NCBI GenBank assembly: GCA_001824915.1
Contig: MHTS01000027.1
Location: 1-53,359, forward strand
Reading direction: 5' to 3'
Length of the DNA stretch: 53,359 bases
Source: Candidatus Wildermuthbacteria bacterium RIFCSPHIGHO2_01_FULL_48_27b
GTDB lineage: Bacteria; Patescibacteriota; Minisyncoccia; Minisyncoccales; UBA10102
Below the pieces are notes generated by a model. It was not told the origin of the DNA, did not search any database, and saw only the letters and a program-made list of their open reading frames with translations. The position numbers and the translations under genes were made by a program. Each line of letters starts with the position of its first letter. Within the stretch, counting starts at the first letter, position 1. Of the stretch, positions 5,891 through 37,466 are shown in pieces.

Positions 5891-6937
5891 CTAGACGACG
5901 GCCTGCGCTGCAGGCACCTCGTCTGGCATGCGGCGGCCCAGGGCGCCGGCGACGGCGCGGACGCCCTTCATCAGATCGTTGAAGTTCTCGAACGTGAGCG
6001 ACTGCGCGCCGTCGCTCCACGCCGTGTCCGGGTTCGGGTGGACCTCAATGATCAGGCCGTGCGCGCCCGCCGCCACCGCAGCCAGGGCCATTGGCTTCAC
6101 CAGGTACCACTTCCCCGTCCCGTGGCTCGGGTCCGCGATGACCGGCAGGTGGCTCAGCTTCTTGATCACCGGGATCGCCGTCAGGTCCAGCGTGTTGCGC
6201 GTGCCCGTCTCGAAGGTACGGATGCCGCGCTCGCAGAGGATGACGTTGGGGTTGCCGCCCGCCAGGATGTACTCCGCACACAGCAGCCACTCCTCGTACG
6301 TCGTGGCGAAGCCGCGCTTGAGCAGCACTGGGCGCTGCACCTTGCCCACCCGATCCAGCAGTGGGTAGTTCTGGATGTTCCGCGCGCCGATCTGCAGGAT
6401 GTCGGCGTACTCCGCGACGGTCTCGACCTCCTCCGTGGACATCACCTCGGTGATGATCGGCAGCCCGGTCTCCTCGCGCGCCTTGGCCAGCATCCTCAGG
6501 CCGGTCACGCCATGGCCCCGGAAGGAGTACGGCGATGTCCGCGGCTTGTACGCCCCGCCACGCATGATCATCGCGCCCGCCGCCTTGATCGCCTTGGCCG
6601 TGGTGATAACCTGCTCCTCCGACTCCACGGCGCACGGCCCGGCCATCACGACCACTTGGTCTGACCCGATGGCCACGTTGCCGACCCTGACGATAGTGCT
6701 CTCCGGCTTGAACTCCCGGCTGCCGAGTTTGTACTGCTTGGTAACCCGCAGCACCTCGCTGACTCCACGCAAGAGCTCAAGCTCATCCTTGAGCTCCGGC
6801 ACGATGCGTCCCTCGACGCCGATGATCGTGCGCTCCACGCCGACACTGATGTGAGGCTTATAACCTCGCCCGTCGATGTATGCCGCCACACACTCGATAT
6901 CCTTCTTGGTTGAATCCTGCTTCATCACCACGATCAT
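5891..6937 (-). CDS. aroF: 3-deoxy-7-phosphoheptulonate (DAHP) synthase, class I-beta, with N-terminal ferredoxin-like regulatory domain
   Basis: 348 aa. Motifs: [59 protein letters not shown] and PVIADPSHG. The N-terminal 70 aa resemble the Thermotoga-type FL regulatory domain. Strongly GC-rich, with a GAAGGAG SD. Confidence 0.9.
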
Positions 6938-7017
6938 CGGCTGTCTCCTTCTTCTCTGGCTCTATGTTTAGTGCCAGTTTCGAAAGTCAATACAAATTCA
7001 CTCTCGAAATTGGCATT

Positions 7018-7047
7018 AAAAAACGAAAGCCAGCCTCGTCGGCTGGG
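7018..7047 (-). terminator. attenuator terminator in the DAHP synthase leader
   Basis: Minus-strand RNA reads CCAGCC-GACGA-GGCUGG followed by CUUUCGUUUUUU. AUCGUCGGC inside the leader ORF (plus strand 7111-7119) is complementary to GCCGACGA, which forms the 5' arm and loop of the terminator. Confidence 0.6.
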
Positions 7048-7087
7048 AATCTAGTATCTTTTGCTTATTGTTTTTCTTTCTCGTTAC

Positions 7088-7171
7088 CTATTTTTGGATA
7101 CTAAAATTATGCCGACGATTTTGGCTAGTAAAAGTAAAATACCAAAAGGAATATCTCAACTGTAAACTCAT
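7088..7171 (-). CDS. candidate leader peptide rich in all three aromatic residues (MSLQLRYSFWYFTFTSQNRRHNFSIQK)
   Basis: 27-codon ORF whose ATG lies 7 nt after a TAAGAA(T) -10 box, so effectively leaderless. Six of eight consecutive residues are Tyr/Phe/Trp (YSFWYFTF). A terminator lies about 40 nt after its stop. Confidence 0.55.
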   Translation of the reverse strand: MSLQLRYSFWYFTFTSQNRRHNFSIQK

Positions 7172-7178
7172 GGTTTTA

Positions 7179-7207
7179 TTCTTATACCTTTCAAAGCAAG
7201 TTGTCAA
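7179..7207 (-). promoter_or_regulatory. promoter TTGACA-17-TAAGAA for the DAHP synthase leader
   Basis: Read on the minus strand, immediately after the pheA hairpin. An alternative -10, TATAAG, would give a 15-nt spacer. Confidence 0.45.
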
Positions 7208-7216
7208 ATAGATTGG

Positions 7217-7254
7217 GGAGGGAGCGCGGATCTTTCGATCTTCGCGCTCCCTCC
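7217..7254 (-). terminator. 12-bp GC-rich hairpin after pheA (terminator-like, weak U tract)
   Basis: GGAGGGAGCGCG...CGCGCTCCCTCC, 11 nt after the pheA stop. Confidence 0.45.
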
Positions 7255-7265
7255 TTTATTGAAGG

Positions 7266-8099
7266 CTAAGCCTGCTCGCGCCACTGCGGGTAAGACCCAA
7301 ACACCTTGAGGCGGGAGGTGCAGCGCCGTGCCGCCACCAATGCATCCTTCAGCTCTAAGTCTTCCCGATGTGCCTCAACATCCACCAAGAAAACATACTG
7401 ACCCAGCGCTGTCTTGGCAGGGCGAGACTCCATCCTGGAAAGGTTTAGGCCTCGCGCCGCAAAGATGGCATAGATGGTGAGCAGGGCACCTGGCTTGTCT
7501 TTGAATGTCTCAAAGGCAAGCGAAGTCTTGTCGCAGCCCGTGGGCCGCGCGCTTCGGCGCCCGACCACCCAGAACCTAGTGCTATTCCTCTGTCTGTCCT
7601 GGACGTTCTCCTGCAGGATTACAGCTCCTTCTTGGGCGGCTGCCTTCCCCGCAATGGCCACGGCAGGAACATCGGACTCCAACATTTGGATGACCGCTCC
7701 TGCGGTGGAGTCCGTAGCAATCTGCTTTGCCTTTGGGAACAGCGCGTGGATGTTTTTTGCGCACTGCCCCAGACCCTTGGGATGGGAAAACACAACCTGC
7801 ACGTCCTCTAGGACGGTCCCATGACGCCCCCACAGACACTGGCTGATATTCATGACAACCTCGCCGCACACCCGCACTCTGCGGGCATCATGGATAAGGT
7901 AATCAAGAACATCGGTCACGGGACCATCAATGGAGTTCTCGACGGCCACAACTCCCAGCGAGACCTCGTTTTTCTCCACAGCCTCAAGCACGTGAAGATG
8001 CGAGGGATATGGGACATGCGGACCCTCTGGCAACCAGGTCTTGGCCGCCTCATGGCCGAAGGTACCCACAGGACCTAGGAACCCGATTTGCTTAGGCAT
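7266..8099 (-). CDS. pheA: prephenate dehydratase (monofunctional PDT + ACT domain)
   Basis: 277 aa. Motifs: IGFLGPVGTFGHEAA, VAVENSIDGPV, TRFWVVG and the ACT-domain ESRP motif (LSRMESRPAK). GAGGAGGAG SD. GC-rich. Confidence 0.9.
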   Translation of the reverse strand: MPKQIGFLGPVGTFGHEAAKTWLPEGPHVPYPSHLHVLEAVEKNEVSLGVVAVENSIDGPVTDVLDYLIHDARRVRVCGEVVMNISQCLWGRHGTVLEDVQVVFSHPKGLGQCAKNIHALFPKAKQIATDSTAGAVIQMLESDVPAVAIAGKAAAQEGAVILQENVQDRQRNSTRFWVVGRRSARPTGCDKTSLAFETFKDKPGALLTIYAIFAARGLNLSRMESRPAKTALGQYVFLVDVEAHREDLELKDALVAARRCTSRLKVFGSYPQWREQA

Positions 8100-8195
8100 T
8101 GCATCTCCTCCTCGCTACGCTCACTCCTGTTGAGCGCAGCATTAGAAAATCATTCTGTAATTTCCTTGTGCCGTGCTCAATATTTTCACAACCAA

Positions 8196-8220
8196 CAAAA
8201 AACCCTCCCGGCTGGGAGGA
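8196..8220 (-). terminator. attenuator terminator in the pheA leader
   Basis: Minus-strand RNA reads CCUCCC-AGCC-GGGAGG followed by GUUUUUUG, about 95 nt before the pheA start. UGGGAG at the 3' end of the leader ORF (plus strand 8271-8277) is complementary to CUCCCA in the 5' arm. Confidence 0.7.
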
Positions 8221-8259
8221 TTTTCGTTTCGGATTTAAGCTTGTTCTCCTTTGCTTTTC

Positions 8260-8337
8260 CTACTTTAAATCTCCCAACCTTAGTGAAGGGGTAAAGAAAG
8301 CAAAAAAGAAAAAGTCTTTCGATGCGCTATATTTCAT
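8260..8337 (-). CDS. Phe-rich leader peptide (MKYSASKDFFFFAFFTPSLRLGDLK), pheL-like
   Basis: 25-codon ORF 14 nt after the -10 box. Six Phe occur in seven consecutive codons (FFFFAFF), closely resembling E. coli PheL [15 protein letters not shown]. A terminator follows and then pheA. Confidence 0.7.
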   Translation of the reverse strand: MKYSASKDFFFFAFFTPSLRLGDLK

Positions 8338-8351
8338 ATCTGTGTAGTTGC

Positions 8352-8384
8352 AATATACGCCAAGCCTCATTTTGTGTCAACCCC
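8352..8384 (-). promoter_or_regulatory. promoter GGGGTTGACA-17-TATATT for the pheA leader
   Basis: Consensus -35 and near-consensus -10 with a 17-nt spacer, read on the minus strand. Confidence 0.7.
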
Positions 8385-8403
8385 AGGACACAGCTCAGGG
8401 CTC

Positions 8404-9522
8404 TTAGGGAATAATCCATTTATCTTTTGGGAAAGTCGTAAAATTTTCAAATCCATCTTTGGTTACAAGAATATCATCTTCAATGCGGATGCCGCCAATT
8501 TCGGGGTAATATAGTCCCGGCTCAATAGTAATCACGTTCCCCGGCACAAGCTCATATTCTACCCTTTCTCCTAGCCGCGGCTCTTCGTGTACCTCCAACC
8601 CTACGCCGTGGCCGGTATTATGAATAAATCCCTTATCTCCCACATCATACCCTGCGTCCAACAATATCTCTGCGCATATCTTATGGATGTCACTTGCTTT
8701 CTTGCCAGGAGCTACGGCTTCTATACCTTCTTTCTGGGCCTTTCGCACAGCCTCATACATTTTTCTAAGCTCTTCTGTCGGAGTTCCTTTTACAAAGGTT
8801 CTTGTGACATCTGCGAAATACCTTGTGGCGCGGCTCTTAGGAAAAATGTCGCAAACAATTGGCTCATGCGGCTTAATTGCCCCCTTCCCCGGGTGGTGAG
8901 GAATCGCGGTCTGCAATCCAGAGGAAATAATTATTCCTTCTTCGCTTATCATATCTTCTTCAAACAATAACCGCTCAACTTCTTTCTTTAAAAACTCGCT
9001 TGTGAGAATCGCGCCGCTATAGAAAATACTGTTTCCTTTGATGACAGACTCTCGTAAAATCTTTTCGATGAGAGCAAATGCCTTTTCTGTTTTTTGGACA
9101 CTCGAGCGAATCGCCTCTGCCTCGTCGGGCGTTTTACTGGCCCGCTCCGGGTACAAATGGATCTGGGGAACAAGTTTCACTCCTTTGGAACGCAGAAAGT
9201 CAGCCAGCAAAAGCGGAAAATTGTTGGGCACGGTGATTATCTCTCCTAAAAGCTCATACTTTTGCAGCAAATACCATGCTAAATTTTGAAGGTTATCTTT
9301 GCTTAGACTTAGTTTTGCGGCCTCCTGCACAAGAGGGTTAAGAAGTTGAACTTCAATGTTTTGATTTTTATTCCTTTCCTGGAACAGGCCGAACTCACGA
9401 TGATCCAGAAAAACATATTTCTTCACGCCCAAATCAATCAGAAAAAAAGGATCCACAATATCCATCTTTACCGCATAAAATACGTCGCGGTTTTTCGTGT
9501 TGTCGTAAATGAGTTTTGCCAT
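8404..9522 (-). CDS. M24 family Xaa-Pro aminopeptidase/dipeptidase
   Basis: HNTGHGVGLEVHEEP and NVITIEPGLYYPEIGGIRIEDD motifs. TAATG overlap with the metG stop. Confidence 0.85.
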   Translation of the reverse strand: MAKLIYDNTKNRDVFYAVKMDIVDPFFLIDLGVKKYVFLDHREFGLFQERNKNQNIEVQLLNPLVQEAAKLSLSKDNLQNLAWYLLQKYELLGEIITVPNNFPLLLADFLRSKGVKLVPQIHLYPERASKTPDEAEAIRSSVQKTEKAFALIEKILRESVIKGNSIFYSGAILTSEFLKKEVERLLFEEDMISEEGIIISSGLQTAIPHHPGKGAIKPHEPIVCDIFPKSRATRYFADVTRTFVKGTPTEELRKMYEAVRKAQKEGIEAVAPGKKASDIHKICAEILLDAGYDVGDKGFIHNTGHGVGLEVHEEPRLGERVEYELVPGNVITIEPGLYYPEIGGIRIEDDILVTKDGFENFTTFPKDKWIIP

Positions 9523-18839: not shown

Positions 18840-20101
18840 ATCTTCAAAAGAGAAAGAAATATTGCCTCCTGGCGATACGGCCCAAGTACCACCAAGTTAA
18901 GCTTCTCTGGCACAAATAGATCTTGCGCTACTGCCTTAATATCTTCTGGCGTTACTTGATTTATCTTATCATACAACTGCTCTGGAGTTAACATAAAACC
19001 TTCCAAAAGTTCCTGCGCGCCGTAAAAGCTTGCTTTGGCGTTAGAAGACTCAAGCTCAAGCGCAAGTTTTCCTTTTTCATATTCTTTGGCTTTCGTCAGC
19101 TCCGTTTTCGATATACTTATGGTTTTGAGCTTTTTGTACTCCTTAAGGATAACTCTGATCGCCTGCTCCGCAGAGCCATTTTTCACGCCCGCCGTGGTTA
19201 CGAGATAACCGGTGTCGGGGTTGTTTTCGCTTGCCGTGGAAATATCGTACGCCAAACCAAGTTTTTCCCTCACCTCCACGAATAAACGGGAACTCATCAT
19301 TCCCCCTAAGGTTACGGCTGCCAGCAGCTGGGCAAAACGCCGAGGGTCAGAAAGATTATATGCCCGCACGCCAAGCGCAATGTTTGTTTGGTTTGTTTTC
19401 CGCCATTCTACCAAAAGCCCGGGAGATTGCTGCGCTTCTTTTACCGGAACCTTGGCCGTGCTCGCCCTGGTGCCAATGCGCGCAAACGCCTGCCGCGCTT
19501 TTTCAACTGCCGGTCTCTGTTTTATATTCCCTGCGATGCACACGAGGGTATTGGAAGCCGTATATTGGCGCTTCATATATTCCTGCGAGTCGCTCCGCGA
19601 AAATCCACGGATACTCTCCGGCCTGCCTACAATATCCCAGCCCGCGGGTTGGTCGCCGTACAAAAGCCGCATCCACAAATTATCAACGTGCCGGGCAGGA
19701 TTATCACGATACATATGCAGCTCCTCCATCACCACTCCTTTTTCTTTTTCTATCTCTTTGGCCGAAAGAGTTGAGCGCAGAAAAATGTCTGCCACCCACT
19801 CTAGCGCCAAATCAAAATGGCTGCTATCCACTTTGGCATAATAGCCGGTGTAATCCTCTCCGGTAAAAGCGTTGTACTGACCACCAACCTGATCGAGCGC
19901 TTCCGCAACCAACAGAGGGGCGGGGCGCTTTGTCGTACCCTTGAAAAACATGTGCTCCAAAAAGTGAGAGATACCGCTTTTGTCTTTCGTTTCGTATTTT
20001 GAGCCGGTTCCCACCAAGACTAAAACGGTCACCGTCTTGGTGCCCCGTTGCGGAATCGTGAGAACCCGTAATCCGCTTTTCAGCGTTGTCTTCTTAGGCA
20101 T
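18836..20101 (-). CDS. M16 family (pitrilysin-like) zinc peptidase
   Basis: HFLEHMFFKGT (HxxEH) motif. 421 aa. Confidence 0.85.
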   Translation of the reverse strand: MPKKTTLKSGLRVLTIPQRGTKTVTVLVLVGTGSKYETKDKSGISHFLEHMFFKGTTKRPAPLLVAEALDQVGGQYNAFTGEDYTGYYAKVDSSHFDLALEWVADIFLRSTLSAKEIEKEKGVVMEELHMYRDNPARHVDNLWMRLLYGDQPAGWDIVGRPESIRGFSRSDSQEYMKRQYTASNTLVCIAGNIKQRPAVEKARQAFARIGTRASTAKVPVKEAQQSPGLLVEWRKTNQTNIALGVRAYNLSDPRRFAQLLAAVTLGGMMSSRLFVEVREKLGLAYDISTASENNPDTGYLVTTAGVKNGSAEQAIRVILKEYKKLKTISISKTELTKAKEYEKGKLALELESSNAKASFYGAQELLEGFMLTPEQLYDKINQVTPEDIKAVAQDLFVPEKLNLVVLGPYRQEAIFLSLLKI

Positions 20102-37093: not shown

Positions 37094-37466
37094 GGGGATG
37101 TCCAGCTTTGACAGCGAGCCAAAGCAATTCTCGCGATGGGAGTACGGCCTCCTTAAAACCGAGGCAATACAACTGCCAACATTTTTAAGCCGGCACAACC
37201 GGCTCTTGCCTACGCATAACTAGTCCGCCAACCGGCGGACGAATCGCAGGCCATTCGCTCTTTGACTCTCGATAAAAGAAGCGGGTGTCAACCATCGAGA
37301 TAGATAGCTTTTTCGAAGGTCCGGGAGCTATTGATTTTTAAGGACCATCAAAGAGAAAGTGGGTTCGTCCAGTTCTTGCACTCTCTCTTTCAAAAAACTG
37401 GACTATCATCGTAGATAGAATTTCCTCGTCTCGCTGGACGCGGGTTCGACCCCGCCATCTCCACCA
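37094..37466 (+). ncRNA. ssrA: transfer-messenger RNA (tmRNA)
   Basis: 5' GGGGATGTCCAGCTTTGACAGCGAGCC and 3' GGACGCGGGTTCGACCCCGCCATCTCCACCA, with the G3:U70 alanine identity pair. A putative tag frame GCA CAA CCG GCT CTT GCC TAC GCA TAA (..AQPALAYA-stop) lies at 37193-37219. Confidence 0.9.

Follow-up and report, generated by a model that had tools for sequence, protein, structure and literature searches.

The 53,359-nucleotide (nt) contig MHTS01000027.1 of Candidatus Wildermuthbacteria bacterium RIFCSPHIGHO2_01_FULL_48_27b, referred to here as the window, encodes on its minus strand the prephenate dehydratase (PDT) gene pheA and, upstream of it, a candidate attenuator made up of a promoter, a short open reading frame (ORF) with a run of phenylalanine codons, and a hairpin followed by a U-run (Table 1). 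An earlier note on this DNA, made from the letters of the sequence, had read the region as a phenylalanine leader-peptide attenuator in a CPR-like genome, and the host is indeed a member of the Parcubacteria within the Candidate Phyla Radiation (CPR). The promoter hexamers and their spacing, the ORF with six Phe codons in seven, and the hairpin ahead of pheA all stand; only the 5' limit of the element shifts, which with the -35 box included lies at 8380 and not at 8384. No Shine-Dalgarno sequence is present in the 14 nt that separate the leader ATG from the -10 box, and a leader 5' untranslated region (UTR) of about 7 nt is predicted. The core stem of the terminator (8225-8198) reads GAAAAUCCUCCC-AGCC-GGGAGGGUUUUU and leads directly into the U-run. 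The complementarity between UGGGAG in the leader (8276-8271) and CUCCCA in the terminator (8218-8213), as the note had described it, extends further than was claimed, with GGUUGGGAGAUUU (8279-8267) pairing with AAAU-C-CUCCCAGCC (8223-8210). The pheA gene has a strong Shine-Dalgarno sequence of its own, GAGGAGGAG, at 8113-8105.

The product of pheA consists of a PDT and an ACT domain by Pfam. It scores 253 bits against the NCBIfam model NF008865 (cut-off, 219) and 115 bits against the bifunctional model NF007910 (cut-off, 577), in agreement with the earlier description of a monofunctional, GC-rich gene. The guanine-plus-cytosine (GC) content is 47% for the window, 58% for pheA, and 65% for the next gene downstream. 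An identical PDT is present on groundwater (Rifle-type) metagenome contigs, and further relatives form a CPR clade at 52 to 71% identity; below this clade, identity falls to about 48% or less, and the named matches there are Chloroflexota. The gene order methionyl-tRNA synthetase (MetRS)-(peptidase)-PDT-...-TatD is kept across the CPR clade, and PDT was therefore vertically inherited within these Parcubacteria after an older acquisition. At every locus of the clade, PDT is GC-richer than its flanks.

Table 1. Coordinates of the candidate attenuators, their genes, and comparable features in the window and at related loci (L numbers)
Feature	Position	Strand	Remarks
-35 hexamer TTGACA	8380-8375	-	17-nt spacer to -10; 11/12 consensus positions matched together with -10
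-10 hexamer TATATT	8357-8352	-	leader ATG 14 nt downstream
Leader ORF (pheL-like), 25 codons, MKYSASKDFFFFAFFTPSLRLGDLK + stop	8337-8260	-	ATG 8337-8335
Putative regulatory Phe codon run, codons 9-15, FFFFAFF	8313-8293	-	six Phe in seven codons
Predicted antiterminator 5' strand GGUUGGGAGAUUU, 3' end of leader ORF	8279-8267	-	partner 8223-8210
Purine-rich segment GAAAAGCAAAGGAGAACAAGCUU, just after leader stop	8259-8237	-	predicted partner is the untranslated Phe codons
Putative intrinsic terminator, stem AAAAUCCUCCC / GGGAGGGUUUU, loop AGCC, U-run	8228-8194	-	
Rest of pheA 5' UTR: long hairpin UUGAGCaCGGCA...UGCUGcGCUCAA and Shine-Dalgarno sequence	8193-8100	-	read from sequence
pheA, monofunctional prephenate dehydratase with ACT domain, 277 amino acids	8099-7266	-	ATG 8099, 97 nt past U-run
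Second candidate attenuator, aromatic leader	7207-7018	-	promoter TTGACA at 7207; between pheA and next gene
Second leader ORF MSLQLRYSFWYFTFTSQNRRHNFSIQK	7171-7088	-	Tyr/Phe/Trp codons at 7153-7130
Second putative terminator CCAGCCGACGAGGCUGG	7046-7030	-	U-rich tail to 7018
DAHP synthase, N-terminal FXD domain type	6937-5891	-	65% GC; behind second attenuator
Stand-alone unit (TTGACA promoter, leaderless small ORF, terminator), window	5343-5152	-	
Stand-alone unit, L102	1390-1590		
Stand-alone unit, L077	5342-5515		
Third candidate attenuator, WWWTW leader MLGNKPSQLNTVVLNWWWTWELRSQSPILGLS and terminator	23964-23778	-	
Small-protein gene, L011	3351-3542		
Small-protein gene, L098	3411-3629		
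Small-protein gene, L077	1868-2086		
Small-protein gene, L012	5485-5685		

A Phe-rich ORF of this kind is unlikely to arise by chance, and the RNA that contains it is predicted to fold into alternative structures. Scanning for ORFs of 8 to 60 codons with at least five Phe in seven codons gave none in any of 20 block-shuffled windows and three entries in the real one, two of which are the leader ORF read from alternative starts; the third is antisense inside a gene (a Phe-rich ORF at 19715 on the plus strand was dismissed as antisense within a 421-amino-acid gene). The 156-nt leader RNA folds with a z score of -3.2, and its leader segment pairs with the 5' arm of the terminator at -14.1 kcal/mol, compared to -6.8 +/- 2.4 kcal/mol in shuffled sequences, of which only 1 of 300 reaches the value of the real leader. 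In the minimum free energy structure of the free leader RNA, the Phe codons are paired to the purine-rich segment after the stop, followed by the terminator. The duplex of the Phe codons with this segment (8259-8237) comes to -17.4 kcal/mol, and the Rfam Phe_leader model aligns to the same pairing. For comparison, a shorter antiterminator duplex (UUGGGAGAUUUAAAG with GAAAAUCCUCCCAG) has an energy of -11.6 kcal/mol, and the isolated 28-nt terminator hairpin has one of -16.7 kcal/mol.

A translating ribosome was modelled as a block covering the RNA from its 5' end up to a leading edge set 9, 12, or 15 nt beyond the first base of the A-site codon. With the ribosome stalled at F10 to F12, the predicted probability of the UGGGAG:CUCCCA pairing is 0.77 to 0.91 and that of the terminator core is 0.02 to 0.17. 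Once the A site lies at codon 18 through the stop codon, or when the ribosome is absent, the model gives 0 for the antiterminator and 1.0 for the terminator. The outcome holds for all three leading edges, and seven related loci give a modelled switch like that of the window. The mutually exclusive helices that the earlier note had postulated are thus predicted by folding, and the footprint model switches exactly at the Phe codons.

We compared PDT loci of relatives, taken from GTDB genomes and metagenomes and by exact-protein look-up. A mini-ORF with a Phe run lies directly upstream of PDT in 9 of 10 loci of the CPR clade, and these nine loci carry at least seven different leader peptides. Examples of leader peptides in the relatives are MEYNASKNFFFFAFFIPLLRLGDLK, MQGTNRFFFFTFFTGPQKRLIALR, MKIQVSRNFFFFFTSLAKSSEISL, MKRQSSKNFFFFFTSLAKSLENFVA, MQTQSSRYYFFFFFTSPAKSLEDLI, and MQKTFSGKLFFFSFTSPAKSVEIFLL. 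Of the more distant PDT loci, 68 had enough upstream sequence, and such a mini-ORF occurs in only three of them; these three share the promoter and helix motifs, and one is annotated as Candidatus Paceibacterota. A covariance model added two more, L085 and L086, for five further Parcubacteria-type loci in all; L086 is cut by a contig end, so that only the 3' part of its leader is visible. This brings the total to 14 of 15 related CPR pheA loci with a leader; the Phe-codon enrichment is kept in the 13 with a readable leader ORF, L086 being the 14th. The other 63 outgroup PDT loci scanned yielded no leader. A metagenome scan with the PDT profile gave mainly PDTs of at most 46% identity, which served as a control set.

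Several traits of the leader recur with little variation. Every locus with a complete leader has an ATG and an in-frame stop, and the ORF always lies directly upstream of PDT or of an operon of PDT with 3-deoxy-D-arabino-heptulosonate 7-phosphate (DAHP) synthase. All 11 full-length leader loci that were modelled have a GC-rich hairpin with a U-rich tail 20 to 35 nt past the leader stop, and a perfect TTGACA is found in 11/11 related leader promoters. The gap from the -10 hexamer to the ATG is 8 to 14 nt and lacks a Shine-Dalgarno sequence in all 11 promoters read, which makes a leaderless or near-leaderless mode of initiation a trait kept across these loci; the nearly leaderless start proposed in the earlier note thus holds well beyond the window. 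The Phe run itself is retained in the orthologous leaders, where its absence would have spoken against the proposal. The Phe pyrimidine tracts of ten distinct leaders contain 20 C residues, every one of which occupies codon position 3, a bias that reads as the signature of selection on UUU/UUC codons and not on a U-rich RNA motif.

The alternative helices also covary among the relatives. In most of them, the Phe codons are followed in order by region 1 (ACCAGCC), region 2 (GCGAAGAGCUnGGAG), region 3 (CUCCAGCCCUUCGC), and region 4 (GAGGGGCUGG and U residues), and the alternative to the terminator (3:4) is a pair of nested pairings, 1:4 and 2:3. For ten relatives, we counted pairs on an alignment curated by hand, with N as gap filler and the register kept by MAFFT. 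The terminator is paired in 97% of cells, with three pairs changed on both sides (reached by 4/500 shuffles; slid controls, 35 to 61%). The antiterminator is paired in 94% of cells, with four pairs changed on both sides (1/500 shuffles; slid controls, 29 to 50%), and its covariation score is reached by none of 500 shuffles. For example, in L077 CCAGCC has become CCGGCC in regions 1 and 3 and GGCUGG has become GGCCGG in region 4, while GCGAAG:CUUCGC has become GCAAAG:CUUUGC. Such covariation in two alternative helices is what the earlier note had proposed to look for. An alignment-free test agrees, with each locus's own leader segment pairing with its own terminator arm better than shuffles in 10 of 12 cases (z, -2.4 to -4.6). 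Plain MAFFT with RNAalifold predicted no pairs in regions 2 and 3 of the relatives because the alignment gave a 1-nt indel within the stem different registers. A cross-locus matrix of duplex specificity is partly informative, since many of the relatives' arms are near-identical and the arm segments are of unequal length.

Given the sequence elements, alternative pairings, in silico switch, conservation, covariation, and coding signature shown by the analysis, we consider it very probable that the pheA leader is a ribosome-mediated (leader-peptide) transcription attenuator that ties pheA to the level of charged tRNA-Phe. The transcription start site, leader translation, termination, and read-through we infer from the sequence. 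Transcription would start about 7 nt before the 25-codon ORF; with a start so close upstream and no Shine-Dalgarno sequence, the ribosome would therefore load at or near the 5' end of the emerging RNA. When Phe-tRNA is plentiful, the ribosome would pass FFFFAFF and cover GGUUGGGAGAUUU at the end of the ORF, whereupon the hairpin AAAAUCCUCCC-AGCC-GGGAGGGUUUU with its U-run would form and RNA polymerase would stop before pheA. When Phe-tRNA is scarce, the ribosome would stall in the Phe run and leave GGUUGGGAGAUUU free to pair with AAAU-C-CUCCCAGCC, the terminator's 5' arm and loop, and the blocked terminator would allow read-through into pheA. If the leader is not translated at all, the Phe codons would pair with the purine-rich segment past the stop and the terminator would form, so that the default state is off.

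A number of observations weigh against this interpretation. All of the switching evidence is equilibrium folding with an assumed ribosome footprint. Locus L094 (4845-5001) has no leader, only a promoter and a UTR hairpin before PDT, and L098 (3154-3290) has a degenerate run (FFFLNF), a mutated region 1, and no predicted switch; these two are natural cases of loss or decay of the attenuator. The curated alignment was assembled with the structure already in view and holds only ten related sequences, in which a 1:2 "pause" hairpin is unsupported (76% paired, one double change, reached by 305/500 shuffles; covariation score reached by 81/500; slid controls, 8 to 50% paired). Furthermore, the covariation support comes from the relatives and not from the variant in the window, whose sole close homologue known is L011. 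Covariance model R1, built from the ten relatives, gives the window leader 14.3 bits (E = 0.3), compared to 64 to 99 bits for training members and 87 and 51 bits for the new members L085 and L086, respectively. The window leader is therefore not a clean member of the relatives' RNA family by this test, and its homology to them rests on synteny and pairwise alignment. Lastly, stand-alone units with the same bare layout and no amino-acid logic exist, for example at 5343-5152 in the window and at 5378-5515 in L077, and so the layout is not diagnostic; the case for an attenuator rests on codon identity, complementarity, and covariation.

The leader of the window and those of the relatives are nonetheless likely homologous, because they share the genomic slot, the promoter layout, and a motif at the 3' end of the ORF (UUGGGAGAUUUAAAGUAG in the window and UUGGAAGAUUUGAUAUAG in L095), and because pairwise alignments give z scores of 3 to 8 over shuffles at 58 to 70% identity. 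The ACCAGCC-type Phe leaders of other Parcubacteria, which are not in Rfam, resemble the window in their position among MetRS, PDT, and TatD, their promoter type, the short gap between the -10 box and the ATG, the Phe run, and a CUCC(C)AGCC sequence at the terminator. They differ in having a nested antiterminator, in which region 1 (ACCAGCC) is the partner of the 3' arm and region 2 (GCGAAG..GGAG) that of the 5' arm, whereas the window and L011 represent a remodelled version that lacks ACCAGCC and has its terminator stem shifted to CCUCCC/GGGAGG. The window and L011 share 93% identity over the 197 nt of the leader region, compared to 55% for the peptidase and 71% for PDT at the protein level, which points to either strong constraint on the leader or a recent exchange of the segment. 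In a comparison of L011 (1700-2194) with the window (8384-8097), a remnant of the window-type pheA start, gaggaggagagATGgctaag, is kept in L011, with about 200 nt of extra sequence between this remnant and PDT. The remnant suggests a past rearrangement or gene replacement.

One alternative that we regard as very unlikely is a translation-independent RNA switch that senses a protein, a tRNA (in the manner of a T-box), or a small ligand, with the ORF being incidental. Such a switch would fit the pairing of the Phe tract with the purine-rich segment and the extra structured 5' UTR element that relatives carry past the terminator, which has an alternative pairing of its own. It would not account for a conserved reading frame with an ATG and an in-frame stop in every complete leader, nor for the restriction of the tract C residues (20/20) to codon position 3. 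The leader also lacks the conserved unpaired nucleotides typical of an aptamer, and no T-box or riboswitch came up in an Rfam search, even with hits allowed up to E <= 10. Leader translation could also control pheA through Rho, mRNA stability, or translational coupling in place of intrinsic termination, a reading that we hold to be highly improbable. The U-tails are weak in some relatives, such as L095 (CUUGUUUUU), as this reading would have it, but the GC-rich hairpin with a U-rich tail is present at 11/11 loci and alternates with the antiterminator.

Hardly any weight can be given to the idea that the small ORF, with a promoter and terminator of its own, encodes a hydrophobic microprotein as a separate gene and lies upstream of pheA by accident, with pheA transcribed from elsewhere or by unregulated read-through. 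This idea draws on the units of promoter, leaderless ORF, and terminator without amino-acid logic that lie nearby and in relatives. The one in the window encodes a membrane-like peptide, MRQNLANQIQNIMIVLVVLLGITKPLNLAGRNL, without clear amino-acid logic, and an Ile-rich ORF in L077, MSYQKGIISIIEIIIPQAREAFLKHA, was rejected as an Ile attenuator because it precedes an unrelated 56-amino-acid ORF and TatD. (As a common terminator motif in the window, CCTCCCAG was not enriched, with 3 hits against 1.45 expected.) An independent microprotein is hard to reconcile with peptide sequences that turn over freely save for the Phe run, with an ORF that is always immediately 5' of PDT or of the operon of DAHP synthase and PDT, and with an ORF 3' part that is complementary to the terminator arm in a pairing that covaries; moreover, a promoter scan reported no separate site between the terminator and pheA. 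Chance as the reason why a promoter-like site, a Phe-rich ORF, and a hairpin lie together merits next to no credence, for although short ORFs are abundant in general, nothing beyond this speaks for it, and the comparative data already refute it, with such an ORF in 0/20 shuffled windows, recurrence in 14/15 CPR PDT loci and in 0/63 others, and helices that covary.

A separate structured element lies in the 5' UTR between the terminator and the PDT start of L083, L092, L095, L096, L100, L101, and L012, and also at the leaderless locus L094. It consists of GAUGUUCUYUG paired with CAGRGAAAAUC around a variable hairpin; of the 20 pairs that RNAalifold predicts for it, 10 show compensatory changes. 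A UUCYCUG box located downstream offers CAGRGAA an alternative partner, and the element is absent from Rfam. The window shows no more than a loose resemblance, in a hairpin at about 8168-8140. The presence of the element in relatives points therefore to other RNA-level control at the pheA locus, and the element may be a second regulatory layer on pheA.

The window holds two more candidate units of this design with a matching codon logic, which lend support to the reading of the pheA leader. A second candidate attenuator, with a mixed-aromatic leader, lies between pheA and the DAHP synthase gene. The model gives its terminator a probability of 0 for stalls up to F14 and of 0.99 from S16 onward, a switch that coincides with the end of the aromatic codons, and the arrangement is conserved in L102 and L011. 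The nearest relatives of the DAHP synthase are found in a sister genome that was recovered at the same site in groundwater (84%), then in Rokubacteria (82%) and Chloroflexota (65 to 73%), and the gene looks to have been acquired recently and horizontally. The sister genome (L102) retains the aromatic leader. The Rokubacteria relative has no leader at its locus, and the leader therefore did not arrive together with the gene. In L011 the aromatic leader precedes a 63-amino-acid ORF homologous to small ORFs near PDT at other loci; the acquired DAHP synthase therefore apparently landed behind a preexisting attenuator. L085 has a Phe leader followed by a DAHP synthase without the FXD domain and then PDT, so that two types of DAHP synthase are found behind such leaders in different lineages. 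Small proteins of 62 to 72 amino acids without a Pfam match recur at PDT loci (Table 1). Their genes lie between the Phe leader and PDT in L098 and L077 and behind the aromatic leader in L011, a slot that is filled by DAHP synthase in the window.

The third candidate attenuator, with a Trp-rich leader, has a modelled terminator probability of 0.00 for stalls at W16 to W20 and of 0.93 once the ribosome has reached the codon after these. Downstream of it lies an operon comprising a histidine-phosphatase-family gene, a gene for a 291-amino-acid orphan protein found only in CPR, and a second histidine phosphatase gene. No identity was found for the orphan protein in Pfam, NCBIfam, or PDB sequences. 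A relative at 55% identity, L104 (4032-4180), has a GWW...W leader, a near-identical terminator, and the same downstream genes; its genome is labelled Uhrbacteria, and a Trp_repressor-family gene lies nearby. In the window, the first histidine phosphatase gene (23665-23080, minus strand) is apparently frameshifted, with a 101-amino-acid ORF corresponding to the N-terminal part and the C-terminal part in another frame, and would be either a pseudogene or an assembly error. The window also carries ordinary housekeeping RNAs, namely, a transfer-messenger RNA gene (37094-37466, plus strand; Rfam, 110.7 bits) and a tRNA-Leu(GAG) gene (4503-4428, minus strand).

Members of the CPR (Patescibacteria) are regarded as minimal, host-dependent cells with little biosynthesis, and to our knowledge almost none of their gene regulation has been characterised. 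Judged by its sequence features, the pheA attenuator belongs to a Parcubacteria-specific set of leaderless attenuators. As a tentative extension, which we put forward as possible rather than probable, Parcubacteria may own a toolkit of leaderless Phe, mixed-aromatic, and Trp attenuators that act as resident slots wiring in acquired genes of the aromatic pathway, with the Trp member marking the orphan CPR-only operon (histidine phosphatase, ~290-amino-acid protein, and histidine phosphatase) as a tryptophan-responsive function that had so far gone unrecognised. A conserved Phe-sensing attenuator would, if true, imply that transcription and translation are coupled in CPR cells, that these cells monitor tRNA-Phe charging, and that PDT, and in some lineages DAHP synthase, is really used for aromatic amino-acid supply. 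The gating codons would offer a sequence-level handle on the function of orphan CPR genes, such as those behind the Trp leader, and the attenuators would illustrate how acquired genes are placed under native control. Leaderless leader-peptide attenuation would also extend beyond the Actinobacteria.

The best-known counterpart is the pheL-pheA system of Escherichia coli and other Gammaproteobacteria, in which PheL is a short leader peptide whose ORF has several Phe codons in a row. Both systems have a short Phe-run ORF, Phe codons that pair with a purine-rich segment, and a CCUCCC...GGGAGG stem with a U-run, all upstream of pheA. In pheL-pheA, the leader is led by a Shine-Dalgarno sequence and the enzyme is a bifunctional chorismate mutase-PDT, and the window has neither. 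The Rfam model RF01859 (Phe_leader) aligns from end to end with the window, with a score of 40.5 bits (E = 7.7e-5) that falls short of the gathering score of 55, and none of the five related CPR loci that were scanned matched it at E <= 0.5; we therefore rejected membership in this family. The likeness to E. coli PheL drawn in the earlier note thus holds for the architecture but not for the family, and it is most likely convergence on the same mechanism, given the subthreshold score, the relatives without a match, the missing Shine-Dalgarno sequence, and the monofunctional pheA. T-box leaders are the usual tRNA-sensing attenuators of aromatic amino-acid genes in Firmicutes. They share with the window tRNA charging as the signal and a choice between terminator and antiterminator as the output, but they bind tRNA directly, whereas the attenuator in the window would sense it via the translating ribosome; the T-box model gave no hits at E <= 10 within 6800-8500.

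In the literature, reports of pheL come almost exclusively from Gammaproteobacteria, apart from a few candidates in Bacteroides and Desulfobacterium (PMC3082878), and a 2005 comparative survey of Actinobacteria reported no RNA regulatory structure to be conserved upstream of phenylalanine genes (PMC1262725). Our full-text literature searches found no paper joining leader-peptide attenuation or cis-regulatory RNAs with CPR or Patescibacteria. In Corynebacterium glutamicum, the leader peptides of ilvB, trp, leuA, and aroF are made either in the absence of a ribosome-binding site or on leaderless transcripts, and the leader in front of aroF, the DAHP synthase gene, contains Phe-Tyr-Phe (PMC4046766). 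The aroF leader parallels the second attenuator of the window, in which YSFWYFTF precedes DAHP synthase, although C. glutamicum belongs to an unrelated phylum (Actinobacteria) and the likeness is drawn from the layout and not from the sequence. The novelty that the earlier note had seen in the combination of traits therefore narrows, since leader peptides without a ribosome-binding site are already known from Corynebacterium, as is an aromatic leader before DAHP synthase, and only the CPR setting is new. The mechanism is a textbook one, and so the advance lies in its phylogenetic scope and physiology and not in its principle.

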